Source of the DNA: Promethearchaeota archaeon
GTDB taxonomy: Archaea; Asgardarchaeota; Lokiarchaeia; Sigyniarchaeales; SOKP01
Assembly (NCBI GenBank): GCA_019894975.1
Contig: JAGXNO010000022.1
Coordinates: forward strand, 1 to 57,041
Length of the DNA: 57,041 nt
Direction of reading: 5' to 3'
Within the stretch, counting starts at the first letter, position 1. Each line of letters starts with the position of its first letter. The position numbers were made by a program, and so were the translations under genes. Under the pieces are notes generated by a model. The model worked only from the letters and a program-made list of their open reading frames with translations, was not told the DNA's origin and made no database searches. Of this stretch, positions 108 to 49,665 are shown in pieces.

Positions 108-314
108 TTAGTTGAAGTAGATCAAAATCGCAATAATTATTATTACTGAGCCATAAATAATCGAAATAATCCCAAATATTATTTTCGTATGTTTTATTTT
201 CTCCAGTCTTATTAAGATTATTTCAGCAACTATAATTAAAGGTAAACCAAGAACTATAAGAATCCCTAAGATTTGAAGAGGTAAATAATAATCATATAGA
301 TTTATGACAAACAT
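108..314 (-). CDS. small two-TM membrane protein
   Basis: 68 aa, two hydrophobic segments joined by a basic loop. Confidence 0.55.
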   Translation of the reverse strand: MFVINLYDYYLPLQILGILIVLGLPLIIVAEIILIRLEKIKHTKIIFGIISIIYGSVIIIIAILIYFN

Positions 315-518
315 ACAAAATGATCATTACCGCTTTATTAACAATATATAATAGCTTAGCTTAAAGTAGTTTTGGTCCAGAAATTATGCGATTGGATTTT
401 AGTATTTATAGAAATTAAAACTATACATATTTCTAAAATCAAAAATTACCAAAATTTTGATTTTCAATATAAAATGAATAACTTTTTAATTATAAATGAA
501 AATATTTTTGAAAACTGA

Positions 519-2009
519 TTGACTTATAATTGTAAGATGAATGTTAATAAAGTTGAGGAGAATATCTACGAGATTCCTCCTAAAACTTTGATGGCGCGAA
601 TTCAAGGGAATATAGAGAAGTTCCAAATGAGAGTTCCTGTTAGAATTTATGCCAACAATTATATTTTGGAGAAGATAAAACAGGATCGCACATTAGATCA
701 AATTTCGAATGTAGCATGTTTACCAGGAATACGAAAATATGCAATTGCGTTATCTGATGCCCACCAAGGATATGGATTTTGTATAGGTGGAGTAGCTGGA
801 ACAGATGCCGAGACAGGGATGATTTCTCCTGGAGGAGTAGGTTATGATATTAATTGTGGGGTAAGATTGTTAAGAACAAATCTAGCTCTCAGTGATATTA
901 CAAATGCACTTCCAAATTTGTTAAATAAAATATTTAGTAATATCCCTTCTGGTTTAGGTTCTAAAGGCAAACTGAATATAAGTTATCCAGATTTAGATGA
1001 TGTTTTAAATCACGGTGTGAACTGGGCTTTAGAAAAAGGATTCGCAGTTGAAGAAGACCTTAAACACTTAGAAGAAAATGGTTGTTTAAAAAATGGTGAC
1101 GCAAGCCTAGTATCCCAAAAAGCAAAACAAAGAGCCATTAAACAACTTGGTTCTTTAGGAAGTGGTAATCATTTTCTTGAAATTCAAAAGGTAGATCAGA
1201 TCTATAATAAAACTGTGGCAGAAAAACTAGGAATAACAGAAAAAAATCAAATTACTGTTATGGTTCATACGGGGAGCAGAGCGTTAGGTCATCAAGTTTG
1301 TACCGATAGTTTGCGAAAAATTGAACAAGCAATGAAACAATACAAAATCAAAGTGCCCGATAGAGAACTGGCTTGTGTACCCGCAGATACACCTGAAGCT
1401 CAAAACTATTTACAGCAGATGGCGTGTGCTGCCAATTTTGGATTTACTAATCGTCAATTAATTACCCATTGGTTAAGAGAATCATTTCAAAATACATTTA
1501 ATAAGGATATTGATGCATTAGACATGCATATGATTTATGGTGTTTGTCATAATATCCTAAAAATAGAAGAACATGAAATAGAGGGTAAAAAGGTGATGTT
1601 AAATGTCCATCGTAAGGGAGCAACTAGAGCATTTCCACCAAATCATCCAGCTTTGCCCCAAGATTATAAGGATATTGGTCAACCGGTTTTAATTCCTGGA
1701 ACCATGGGATCTGCTTCATATTTATGTGTAGGTAAACCAAAAGCTATGGATTTAACTTTTGGTTCTACTGCTCATGGATCTGGTAGAGTAATGTCTAGAT
1801 CAAAAGCTGTTAAAAAATATTGGGGAACCAAAATTCAAGAAGATTTAGGAAAGAGAGGAATATTAGTAAAGAGTGCTTCTATGAAAGTTTTAGCTGAAGA
1901 AAGTCCTGGAGCTTACAAAGATATTGATCAAGTTGTACAAGTAAGTCACGATCTAGGAATTGTTGAAAAAATTGTAAGACTCACTCCAGTAGGGGTTGTT
2001 AAAGGATAA
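519..2009 (+). CDS. rtcB: RNA-splicing ligase RtcB
   Basis: DAHQGYGFCIG, GVGYDINCGVR, LGSGNHFLE, HRKGATRAF, STAHGSGR, EESPGAYKDI motifs. Confidence 0.97.
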   Translation: MTYNCKMNVNKVEENIYEIPPKTLMARIQGNIEKFQMRVPVRIYANNYILEKIKQDRTLDQISNVACLPGIRKYAIALSDAHQGYGFCIGGVAGTDAETGMISPGGVGYDINCGVRLLRTNLALSDITNALPNLLNKIFSNIPSGLGSKGKLNISYPDLDDVLNHGVNWALEKGFAVEEDLKHLEENGCLKNGDASLVSQKAKQRAIKQLGSLGSGNHFLEIQKVDQIYNKTVAEKLGITEKNQITVMVHTGSRALGHQVCTDSLRKIEQAMKQYKIKVPDRELACVPADTPEAQNYLQQMACAANFGFTNRQLITHWLRESFQNTFNKDIDALDMHMIYGVCHNILKIEEHEIEGKKVMLNVHRKGATRAFPPNHPALPQDYKDIGQPVLIPGTMGSASYLCVGKPKAMDLTFGSTAHGSGRVMSRSKAVKKYWGTKIQEDLGKRGILVKSASMKVLAEESPGAYKDIDQVVQVSHDLGIVEKIVRLTPVGVVKG

Positions 2010-12996: not shown

Positions 12997-13148
12997 TGCA
13001 GGAGGTGGGATATTCGAAAGAGATCGATATGATCCGTTATCATTATTCGAACCCACGAAGACCTATGTCACTAGAACCTCAATCTAGCGCCGATAGCCGC
13101 TTGTTCTATATACCAAACAATGCTTAGACCAGGCTTGGCAACTCCTGC
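12997..13148 (-). tRNA. tRNA-Leu(GAG) with two non-canonical introns (D-loop 13093-13124, 32 nt; T-loop 59/60 13011-13045, 35 nt)
   Basis: Acceptor GCAGGAG/CTCCTGC-A; anticodon arm CTAGA-TTGAGGT-TCTAG; long variable arm; T arm GTGGG-TTCGAAT-CCCAC after splicing; mature 85 nt; no encoded CCA. Confidence 0.92.
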
Positions 13149-13397
13149 TTTGAATTAATTGTATTTTAGACCTTTTTTTTGATATCAAGAATAGACTGCA
13201 TTATTGATATTGAATTAGATAATGTATCCAATTTTTAAAATCTTATTCCTAAATTATTCTTAATTTTCATTTTTAATGCTTAATTCAAAAAATGTTAAAG
13301 ATTATCGTTTTCTATAAATTTTTAAGATAAACTTATTATATTAAATAATAAAATTTTAGTTATTTTATAGTGCATTTAAAAACATAATACAAAGGTT

Positions 13398-14420
13398 ATG
13401 AATTTCATGTCAGTTGATCGAAACAAATTAGAAGCGTTGCTAAAATGGTATAGGCAGGAAGTTGGTGCAAATTTGATTGCGGCTATTATTGTGAATAGGG
13501 AAGGTTTAGTAATGGCAGCAGTAAAAGGAGAATCAGAAACAGAAGTAGAAGAGGATGTAATTGCTGGTGTAAGTGCATTAGTAGAACCTGTTCTAACCAG
13601 AATTACAGAAGAGTTCAGTTCAGGGGCTTTCGGAACAGGCACGTTTGATACAGAAGAACAACGTATTATTTTTTGCGAAGCGGGACCTGAAGCAATTTTT
13701 GTAACAGTATTAGATTCAATTGCAATGGTTGATCCCATTTTTCCATATGCGTATTTAGCTGCAGAGAAAATAGCTCGAATTTTTGATGGGAGAACAGTCA
13801 GTCCTGTGATTCCAAAGCTGATTTCTGACCATGATACTCAAAAAATCGAAAGAAAAGTGGATAAACTTCAAAAAATTAAAGTCAAATCCGGGGAATATGC
13901 TTACAAACTAATTTTGGGAGGGGAAGGAGGAGTAGGTAAAACTAGTATGGTTCATCGTTTTGTTGAAAACGCGTTTCAAACTGATTACAAATCTACGATA
14001 GGGACATCAATAATGAAAAAAGAATGTGACTTTGAAGGTTTAGATTCAAAAGTAAGGTTTGTTCTTTGGGACTTGGCGGGACAAGCACAATTTAAGCGTG
14101 TTAGACAATCATATTTATCAAATGCTGAAGCAGGTATTTTGGTTTATGATGTGACTCGTAAAGATACTCTTGATAAAGTAGAAAATTGGTTTAGTGAAAT
14201 AAAAGATGTCTCACCGAACATTTCTTTAATCTTAGTAGGTAATAAAATTGATCTAACAGAAGATCGGGTAATTTCGACTGAAATGGGAGAAGCATTCGCG
14301 AAAAAACTAAATCTTTCATATATCGAGACTTCAGCAAAAACCGGAGAAAACATAAATGATGCATTTAAAATGCTTGCTTTACAAAGAATAAGAGAATATG
14401 TTTTCACTGAGGAAGTGTAA
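13398..14420 (+). CDS. Roadblock/LC7 domain - Rab-like small GTPase fusion
   Basis: N-terminal IIVNREGLVMAA roadblock pattern; C-terminal GEGGVGKT, WDLAGQ, GNKID, ETSAK. Confidence 0.9.
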   Translation: MNFMSVDRNKLEALLKWYRQEVGANLIAAIIVNREGLVMAAVKGESETEVEEDVIAGVSALVEPVLTRITEEFSSGAFGTGTFDTEEQRIIFCEAGPEAIFVTVLDSIAMVDPIFPYAYLAAEKIARIFDGRTVSPVIPKLISDHDTQKIERKVDKLQKIKVKSGEYAYKLILGGEGGVGKTSMVHRFVENAFQTDYKSTIGTSIMKKECDFEGLDSKVRFVLWDLAGQAQFKRVRQSYLSNAEAGILVYDVTRKDTLDKVENWFSEIKDVSPNISLILVGNKIDLTEDRVISTEMGEAFAKKLNLSYIETSAKTGENINDAFKMLALQRIREYVFTEEV

Positions 14421-14424
14421 TATA

Positions 14425-14526
14425 AGCCTCTGGGGGGAATTGAACCCCCGACCGAATCACCTGATTGATTGAATTAAAAAATCAATTGATTACGAATCAA
14501 TAGCTCTACCACTAAGCCACAGAGGC
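14425..14526 (-). tRNA. tRNA-Thr(CGT) with a ~30 nt non-canonical intron (~14456-14485, position ~42-44)
   Basis: Acceptor GCCTCTG/CAGAGGC-T; D arm GCTT/GAGC; ATTGA-TTCGTAA-TCAAT; T arm GGGGG-TTCAATT-CCCCC. Confidence 0.9.
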
Positions 14527-14594
14527 ACAGAAATTTTTAAAAATATAAGTTTATTCAAAAATAATAGTTATTAAAAAATTATAAAATTTTACTT

Positions 14595-15614
14595 ATGAGT
14601 GATAATCCTCAGATAGGTAACCTAGGAGAAATAAAATTAATAAAAATTATTGAAGATTTGGTAAGAAGTAAAACGGGAAAAGCTTTAATAAGAGATGATG
14701 CTTTTTTTTTTGAACTTTTAGATGAAGATACTAAGGAGTATTTGGTTTTGAATTCAGATATGCTTGTTTCTTCCACGGATATACCACCACAGATGAATTC
14801 TTATCAAGTTGGGACTAAATCCGTTATAATGAATATTAGTGATTTATTAGTGAAAGGAGTTCGTCCAAAAGGAATTATCATATCTCTAGGTTTACCCAAG
14901 ACGCTTAAAAAAGAATCTTTCATAAAAATTATAAGTGGGATAATCGATTGTTCTTTAAAATTTGATCTTAAACTTATTGGGGGAGATATCAATGAAACAA
15001 AAGAAATCATAATAGCCCCGACCGTGTTTGGTTTAAAAAGTCCTTCGAATATAATCTTAAGAAAAGGGATAAATGTTGATGATATTTTAGTGATTAATAG
15101 AAAATTTGGATTAACAGGTGTTGGATTTGACCTTCTCTTAAACAGAGGCAGTGAAATTGAGATTTTTCCAAATTATATTAGATCCATCAAAAGTGTATTG
15201 GAACCAAGAGTTTCGGGATTGGAAGCATCTATTCTTTCAGAGAAGAAGTTAGCAACTTCAAGTATTGATTCTTCGGATGGTTTAACAAAATCTCTAACAG
15301 ATTTAATGATATCTAATCCAGACATAGGATTTGAAATTGATTTTAATGAGAATTTAATTGATAATGAGGCTATCTTATATTCCCAAGAGTTTAACATTCC
15401 ATTGGAAAATCTTGTTTTTAATGGGGGGGAAGAATACATTCATTTATTTACAATTAAAGCAAACAATTTTTTCAAGGCTAAAAAAGAAATTCAAAAAAAG
15501 GGTGGAACTCTTTTTAAAATAGGAAAAGTAATTCCTGAGGAATATATATATATCTTGAAAGATAATAAAAGAAGCAGACTAAAAAGCTATGGGTTTGAAC
15601 ATTTTACTATTTAA
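14595..15614 (+). CDS. thiL: thiamine-monophosphate kinase
   Basis: GEIKLI, DDA, MNISDL, IGGD, DSSDGL, GGEEY, GFEHF. Confidence 0.9.
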   Translation: MSDNPQIGNLGEIKLIKIIEDLVRSKTGKALIRDDAFFFELLDEDTKEYLVLNSDMLVSSTDIPPQMNSYQVGTKSVIMNISDLLVKGVRPKGIIISLGLPKTLKKESFIKIISGIIDCSLKFDLKLIGGDINETKEIIIAPTVFGLKSPSNIILRKGINVDDILVINRKFGLTGVGFDLLLNRGSEIEIFPNYIRSIKSVLEPRVSGLEASILSEKKLATSSIDSSDGLTKSLTDLMISNPDIGFEIDFNENLIDNEAILYSQEFNIPLENLVFNGGEEYIHLFTIKANNFFKAKKEIQKKGGTLFKIGKVIPEEYIYILKDNKRSRLKSYGFEHFTI

Positions 15615-15747
15615 GTTTAATTTATTAATAGATTTTTCTATATAGTCTTAAAACAGAAGAAGATATTCTCTATACAATAAAATTTTTATACTATAATAGA
15701 TTTATTGCACATACTATCAAGGTTTGTTTACACAAAAATATAGATAT

Positions 15748-15851
15748 GGGCTATTAGCGCAGGCAGGTAGCGCAGCAGGCTTTTAACCTGAAATTTATGA
15801 GATGATCTCTTATAAAAAGGAAGGTCAGGGGTTCAATTCCCCTATAGCCCG
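15748..15851 (+). tRNA. tRNA-Lys(TTT) with a ~30 nt non-canonical intron (~15793-15822, position ~43-45)
   Basis: Acceptor GGGCTAT/ATAGCCC-G; D arm GCGC/GCGC; CAGG-CTTTTAA-CCTG; T arm AGGGG-TTCAATT-CCCCT; intron hairpin TTTATGAGA/TCTTATAAA. Confidence 0.9.
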
Positions 15852-49569: not shown

Positions 49570-49641
49570 GCTATTCCCCCAATTTATATAAAATAATTTA
49601 AAAATTCATTTATGCTATAAATTATTATATATCAATAATAA

Positions 49642-49665
49642 TTGACTCAATCGATTTTGAGTTAA
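49642..49665. promoter_or_regulatory. palindromic operator candidate
   Basis: TTGACTCAA-N6-TTGAGTTAA between divergent genes. Confidence 0.5.

Follow-up and report, generated by a model that had tools for sequence, protein, structure and literature searches.

How do three transfer RNA (tRNA) genes remain in service when each is interrupted, once or twice, away from the usual archaeal intron site at 37/38? The question is raised by a stretch of 57,041 nucleotides (nt) from a Promethearchaeota archaeon, i.e. positions 1 to 57,041 of contig JAGXNO010000022.1 (assembly GCA_019894975.1), hereafter the window, which carries loci for tRNA-Leu(GAG), tRNA-Thr(CGT) and tRNA-Lys(TTT). Our data argue strongly that these are three functional, single-copy tRNA genes with four non-canonical introns of the bulge-helix-bulge (BHB) class, spliced by the archaeal endonuclease EndA and the ligase RtcB. 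Within this analysis the conclusion is built on the structure of the genes, the splice motifs, two of the four junctions, the enzyme repertoire of the genome, and the conservation and turnover of the inserts among sister species.

The gene for tRNA-Leu(GAG), a class II tRNA, spans 152 nt on the minus strand (12997..13148); it was located by an insert-tolerant cloverleaf scan and is called by ARAGORN once spliced. Its exons (13125-13148, 13046-13092 and 12997-13010) are separated by an intron of 32 nt at the junction of D-loop and D-stem (21/22; 13093..13124) and by another of 35 nt in the T-loop (59/60; 13011..13045). The tRNA-Thr(CGT) gene, also on the minus strand (14425..14526, 102 nt; 61.3 bits against RF00005), has exons at 14486-14526 and 14425-14455 and a single intron of 30 nt (14456..14485) at the 3' end of the anticodon stem, which may be written 42/43 or 43/44, both giving the same product because a T is repeated. 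The tRNA-Lys(TTT) gene lies on the plus strand (15748..15851, 104 nt; 55.2 bits against RF00005), with exons at 15748-15792 and 15823-15851 and an intron of 30 nt (15793..15822) in the variable loop, at 44/45. When the inserts are deleted, ARAGORN calls Leu(gag) with 85 nt and Lys(ttt) with 74 nt as regular cloverleafs with intact stems; the spliced Thr has 72 nt and is called Thr(cgt), again with a regular cloverleaf, the ARAGORN model spanning 74. An earlier reading of the window, made from the sequence only, had described three tRNA genes holding four inserts, all 30-35 nt long and all away from 37/38, and it agrees with our coordinates and spliced cloverleafs. Split or permuted tRNA genes are excluded, the exons of all three genes being collinear within 102-152 nt. 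ARAGORN, Infernal and the insert-tolerant scan found no other tRNA gene on the contig.

If these inserts are introns, they should be recognizable to the archaeal splicing machinery. In the geometry that we used, the exon helix h is followed by a central helix H of 4 nt, a bulge of 3 nt and the intron helix h', and on the return strand h' is followed by H, a second bulge of 3 nt and h, each bulge being cut after its second base; in the inserts the 5' cut precedes h' by 1 nt and the 3' cut follows it by 6 nt. The primary transcript would fold locally, with both splice sites in the 3-nt bulges flanking the short helix H, in which the exon bases just ahead of the 5' site would pair with the final intron bases leading up to the 3' site. 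The intron hairpin h' would always flank H, joined by the exon helix h for the two Leu introns. A heterotetrameric (alpha-beta)2 EndA would cut both bulges, a lysine in the Crenarchaea-specific loop (CSL) of its catalytic subunit allowing relaxed motifs, and RtcB would then join the exons.

Both Leu introns pass the strict motif test (hBHBh'), and those of Thr and Lys its relaxed form only (HBh'). At 59/60 of Leu, h is the 5-bp T stem, H pairs TTCG with CGAA and two 3-nt bulges are present: this is a textbook motif, the geometry of a canonical 37/38 intron copied onto the T arm. At 21/22, H has 4 bp (GGTC pairing with GGCT, including two G-U pairs), h has 2 bp, and h' has 2 bp followed by a 5-bp continuation. 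The Lys intron has an h' of 9 bp and 3 of the 4 pairs of H, but no h; the Thr intron likewise has 3 of 4 pairs in H, with an h' of 5 bp.

For two of the four introns the junction does not depend on the motif, since it is fixed by orthologues in sister species. Together with the two protein genes lying between them, the three tRNA genes make up a cluster found in synteny throughout the genus, its order and spacing being kept on single contigs of G018, G011, G013, G017, G012 and others. In the congener G011, tRNA-Lys(TTT) is 74 nt long and free of insert: the strand of the anticodon stem is followed by one base and then by GGTC, which is precisely the predicted product, so that the Lys junction is fixed at 44/45. 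The Leu(GAG) gene of the same congener lacks the D-loop insert and shows in its D arm exactly the spliced sequence predicted, which in turn fixes the Leu junction at 21/22. As the same cluster is syntenic in sister species, and as G011 is devoid of exactly the 30 nt of Lys and of the D-loop insert of Leu, the three interrupted genes are not a product of chance.

Several points weigh against this interpretation. The exact Thr junction is uncertain by 1 nt: a strict 4-bp H would leave a variable loop of 4 or 6 nt, and the register that we chose agrees both with relatives, whose variable loops have 5 nt, and with the geometry established for Lys. The Thr intron moreover has no outer helix h, and in the Lys intron H itself pairs poorly, at only 2 of 4 positions in most congeners. 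Splicing of Thr and Lys would depend on an EndA that accepts relaxed substrates, as the EndA of Aeropyrum pernix is known to do. Finally, cleavage and ligation in vivo are what we infer from the genes and their motifs.

Does the genome encode an enzyme of that sort? Two EndA paralogues are present, of 202 aa (on C22) and 200 aa (on C55). The first, alpha, displays the catalytic Tyr/His/Lys triad; its best match in the PDB is the catalytic alpha subunit of A. pernix (3P1Z_B, E=1e-34), and the alignment runs through the CSL, with K60 falling on K44 of A. pernix. This CSL lysine confers broad substrate specificity (PMC6379350). In the second paralogue, beta, whose best PDB match is the alpha4 enzyme of Methanocaldococcus jannaschii, Phe replaces Tyr and the His is absent; having lost both residues, it is taken as the structural beta subunit. 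By these sequence features the splicing endonuclease is of the broad-specificity, two-subunit (alpha-beta)2 type with a CSL lysine, i.e. the sort of enzyme with which the sequence-only reading had associated such introns. As to ligation, RtcB, an RNA 3'-phosphate ligase by which tRNA exon halves cut by EndA are joined, is encoded in the window itself, by an open reading frame on the plus strand (519..2009; the entire PF01139 model is matched at 699-2006, with 562.6 bits). This member of the pathway is located about 11 kb upstream of the three tRNA genes, outside their cluster; a second, partial RtcB match is found on C48.

The inserts could alternatively stay in the mature RNA and form expansion segments, i.e. 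extra arms. Each of them does form a hairpin of its own, and in its intron mode ARAGORN can accommodate the Thr and Lys inserts, in part, in a long variable arm. Nevertheless, the positions of the inserts obey the BHB geometry, and in sister species the same genes are free of insert or carry it elsewhere. Furthermore all elongator tRNAs need the tertiary interaction between the D and T loops, which 30-35 additional nt in these loops would break. We regard this alternative as extremely improbable.

The comparison with sister species also shows how unequally exons and inserts evolve: over 14-24 species the exons are nearly invariant, whereas the introns vary. The Lys intron is complete in 21 of 24 congeners, with 88-93% identity. 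Over 14 species its h' is paired at 92%, with a compensation from GC to AU at one pair, and only the two middle pairs of H are kept in most. The Thr intron has the same geometry in G008 and G005, where substitutions compensate each other in h' and, once, in H. The position of the introns, on the other hand, shifts from one species to another. In Thr(CGT) the intron lies at 42/43 in the present genome, G008 and G005, at 28/29 in G014 and G013, at 37/38 in G018 and G011, and within the D loop in G017. For Leu(GAG), seven syntenic orthologues cover the whole gene: introns occur at 21/22 and 59/60 in three genomes and at 30/31 and 59/60 in four, while G011 has the one at 59/60 only and G012 the one at 30/31 only, so that 7 of 8 orthologues retain the 59/60 intron, G012 being the exception. 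Thus syntenic genes of sister species present four sites for Thr(CGT) and four configurations for Leu(GAG), which indicates a rapid gain, loss or relocation of the introns. A BHB-type motif accompanies every Thr and Leu variant, and the mature tRNA obtained is always of the same kind, which is further evidence that these are true introns.

The three genes of the window are not isolated cases. The assembly (3.93 Mb in 175 contigs, 31.6% G+C, 95% complete, with 8.5% contamination of the bin) was surveyed with a scan anchored on a 7-bp acceptor stem together with U8 and C61, to which T, D and anticodon arms were then fitted with inserts allowed; all registers were enumerated, each intron was penalised, and the choice between equivalent registers was made by BHB score. 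Together with ARAGORN, Infernal and one match obtained with a T-arm seed, the scan detected about 43 tRNA genes, a total to be read as a lower bound, of which about 28 (~65%) contain introns and 11 contain two; some 25 tRNA genes other than those of the window thus share their intron architecture. Among about 39 introns, 6 lie at 37/38 and about 33 (~85%) are non-canonical: 9 at 59/60, 5 at 21/22, 2 each at 58/59, 19/20, 25/26, 32/33, 44/45 and 45/46, and single ones elsewhere. Their lengths range from 17 to 47 nt (n=37), the mode being 30 nt (15 of 37), and 29 of 37 fall within 28-32 nt. The motifs of the same 37 introns are hBHBh' for 20, HBh' for 13 and hBH for 3, plus one poor motif; since the BHB score served to choose the junctions, this tally is partly circular, which should be counted with the reservations expressed above. 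That non-canonical tRNA splicing is pervasive in this genome, as had been supposed from the window, is therefore borne out by the proportion of interrupted genes and of introns away from 37/38.

This survey also bears on the possibility that the three loci are decaying pseudogenes disrupted by insertions, the functional copies being elsewhere or on unassembled DNA. The assembly is indeed a metagenome-assembled genome (MAG), fragmented into 175 contigs and 95% complete, and its gene list has gaps: Tyr, Pro(GGG/CGG), Arg(CCG) and two of the three CAT genes were not found by ARAGORN, Infernal or the scan. However, these three methods brought to light no further gene for Leu(GAG), Thr(CGT) or Lys(TTT) anywhere in the genome, hence none of the intron-less copies that the sequence-only reading had named as the observation to be expected of pseudogenes, and the pseudogene interpretation fails on this ground. 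Every stem is intact once the inserts are removed, the exons hardly change among species while the inserts evolve with compensatory changes, and the ~65% of detected tRNA genes that look alike cannot all be pseudogenes. We consequently give this interpretation practically no weight.

Functional genes with real introns being our preferred interpretation, where do the introns come from? A recent transposition has been proposed for the introns of Thermoproteales, and a single mobile mini-element, copied by recent transposition into many of the tRNA genes, could account here for the narrow range of sizes and for the rapid shifts of intron position between congeners. The sequences of the introns do not follow: all-against-all local alignment of the 37 introns gives a mean score of 5.43 versus 5.51 after shuffling, the top score is 14 versus shuffled maxima of 10-15, and the introns found at differing sites of orthologous Thr genes share no evident sequence. 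A recent spread of one such element is thus very unlikely. A broader proposal, which we put forward as tentative and on balance doubtful, is that a single class of BHB mini-introns of about 30 nt is turning over fast in this Loki genus, one insertion process seeding EndA-dependent introns into both tRNAs and mRNAs. If true, such an insertion process would be active in a close relative of the eukaryotic ancestor.

Another question is what would keep the introns, supposing they are real. They might be retained by selection because they break the tRNA attachment sites (attB) used by integrating viruses and plasmids, an idea that corresponds to the existing hypothesis of Randau and Söll, as cited in PMC4090602. 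SSV, for instance, integrates into the region from the anticodon loop to the T arm, including that of Leu(GAG) (PMC4090602). In this genome the T loop is the commonest site, with its 9 introns at 59/60 and 2 at 58/59, and T-loop introns belong to the 3' half often used by archaeal integrases. Against this, the D loop, in the 5' half, is the site of many introns, and the turnover of positions between sister species has no visible link to mobile elements. The disruption of attB sites had been evoked for the introns of the window, and it received no support from a search of the exact 3' halves (25-29 nt) of the three spliced tRNAs, which had zero matches in 2.9 million IMG/VR contigs, an exact-match search being a weak test. 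We consider this explanation unlikely, although less so than the transposition of a mini-element.

Interrupted genes of this kind are easily overlooked, as had been anticipated for standard annotation. In its default mode ARAGORN finds no tRNA in the 57-kb window. Infernal with RF00005 finds two of the three genes, leaving about 30 nt unaligned in each, directly after the anticodon stem, and Leu(GAG) is undetected by Infernal even at E<=10; it was recovered with its two introns by eye and with the insert-tolerant scan. Over the whole genome, ARAGORN without introns yields 16 tRNA genes and Infernal 29. Genes may also be detected with a wrong structure. ARAGORN and Infernal propose for Thr(TGT) an “intron-less” gene of 73 nt (C169:4008-4080) whose acceptor stem barely pairs, and which we reject; on the minus strand at C169:4008-4109, a model of 102 nt with a D-loop intron of 28 nt (15/16) has a perfect acceptor stem. 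The intron mode of ARAGORN was no remedy: it returned wrong models, forcing the inserts into the anticodon loop and a long variable arm. A test in which every segment was deleted in turn before calling with ARAGORN was uninformative, hundreds of deletions being accepted. Gene calls in Loki-type Asgard genomes thus under-report and mis-model tRNA genes, and for this reason the apparent gaps in the tRNA sets of these MAGs should not be read as biology.

Some observations made along the survey deserve mention. At C104:161-262 (plus strand), directly downstream of the 3' end of the 16S rRNA, a tRNA-Ala(TGC) gene has a 30-nt intron at 25/26, so that the spacer tRNA of the rRNA operon is interrupted as well. 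Two tRNA-Phe(GAA) genes, at C32:507-641 (minus strand) and C87:47371-47508 (plus strand), differ by their D-region introns. The T-arm seed search for missing isoacceptors gave one extra gene only, a second Gln(TTG)-like gene on C149 (~233-340, minus strand) with C at position 33 and an intron at 59/60 only. This gene and the Phe(GAA) pair may be paralogues or may come from the 8.5% contamination of the bin. A candidate tRNA of 217 nt at C44:62823-63039 (plus strand), with a good BHB intron at 58/59 (H 4 bp, h 3, h' 6), may be a missing isoacceptor with three introns. The tRNA-Cys(GCA) at C2:1842-1926 (plus strand) combines a stem-forming variable region of 14 nt with an unusual T loop (TGCAAAT, position 55 being G); it might contain a mini-insert, or else represent a Cys tRNA of atypical, class II-like form. 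Lastly, a tRNA-Sec(TCA) gene is present at C44:65491-65583 (minus strand), hence the organism probably uses selenocysteine.

In the window itself, the gene between Leu and Thr (13407-14417, plus strand) encodes a protein of 337 aa with a Ras-family small GTPase domain at residues 167-324 (E=2e-50); it is a typical “eukaryotic signature” GTPase of Asgard archaea. Its N-terminal part of about 160 aa has no match in Pfam. A scan of the window for introns in mRNAs gave 147 strict BHB motifs versus about 89 in shuffled sequences, and is not specific. The sole case fusing open reading frames, at 49600-49642 (minus strand), joins a real frame to seemingly non-coding sequence and was rejected.

To what extent is such a system already known? 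EndA alpha is 70-87% identical to proteins of Promethearchaeota/Promethearchaeia MAGs, including Loki_b31 and Loki_b32, which identifies the genome as that of a Loki-type Asgard archaeon, in line with the “Asgard-like” assignment first made from the letters of the window. The sequence-only reading had allowed that the phenomenon might be already catalogued in the clade, and this is so in part. Kaneta et al. 2018 (PMC5829648) reported an (alpha-beta)2 EndA with the L1 (CSL) insert across Asgard archaea, including one Lokiarchaeota MAG, as well as disrupted tRNA genes and incomplete tRNA sets in need of manual curation. Valentin-Alvarado et al. 2024 (PMC11291895) found introns in 92-95% of the tRNA genes of Atabeyarchaeia and Freyarchaeia, often non-canonical and often multiple, some of which are missed by tRNAscan-SE. 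Given these precedents, our finding is correct but of a known kind. What is new here is the Loki genus, the tight size class of 30 nt, and the turnover of introns within a genus on syntenic genes.

The published Asgard pattern—heavy non-canonical introns together with a broad-specificity endonuclease—is thereby extended to a species-rich genus of Promethearchaeia, and the series of species within this genus allows the gain, loss and relocation of introns to be dated on syntenic genes. In addition, the 30-nt size class with its weak central helices offers concrete substrates for testing what the Asgard EndA recognizes.

The closest systems differ from the present one in several respects. Atabeyarchaeia and Freyarchaeia are alike in being Asgard hosts with multiple non-canonical introns, and two EndA paralogues are given in the supplementary table (PMC11291895). 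However, they belong to other Asgard classes than Promethearchaeia/Loki; 92-95% of their genes are interrupted, by up to 4 introns, against about 65% here with at most 2-3 per gene, and their introns range in the table from about 13 to more than 200 nt, while ours are tightly centred on 30 nt. The survey of Kaneta et al. 2018 considered one genome per Asgard phylum, and does not describe intron positions within a genus or their turnover between species.

Outside the Asgard archaea, positions 25/26, 30/31, 45/46 and 59/60 are known in Crenarchaeota (Yoshihisa 2014, PMC4090602). As far as the works of Sugahara 2007/2008 and Fujishima 2010 are reported in PMC4090602, Thermoproteales and other Crenarchaeota have in common with the present genome the BHB and the relaxed HBh' and hBH motifs, similar positions, several introns per gene and an (alpha-beta)2 EndA with the CSL. 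In the same account, evidence of transposition in Thermoproteales comes from the similarity between introns, which is absent here, and the present genome is that of a mesophilic-type, AT-rich Asgard archaeon. The (alpha-beta)2 EndA of Aeropyrum pernix (3P1Z, 3AJV; Hirata 2011, as presented in PMC6379350) shares with the Loki enzyme the triad, the CSL lysine and a beta subunit that is separate and non-catalytic. For the Loki enzyme an activity is predicted, and in the PDB its beta subunit matches best the alpha4 enzyme of M. jannaschii, not a crenarchaeal beta.

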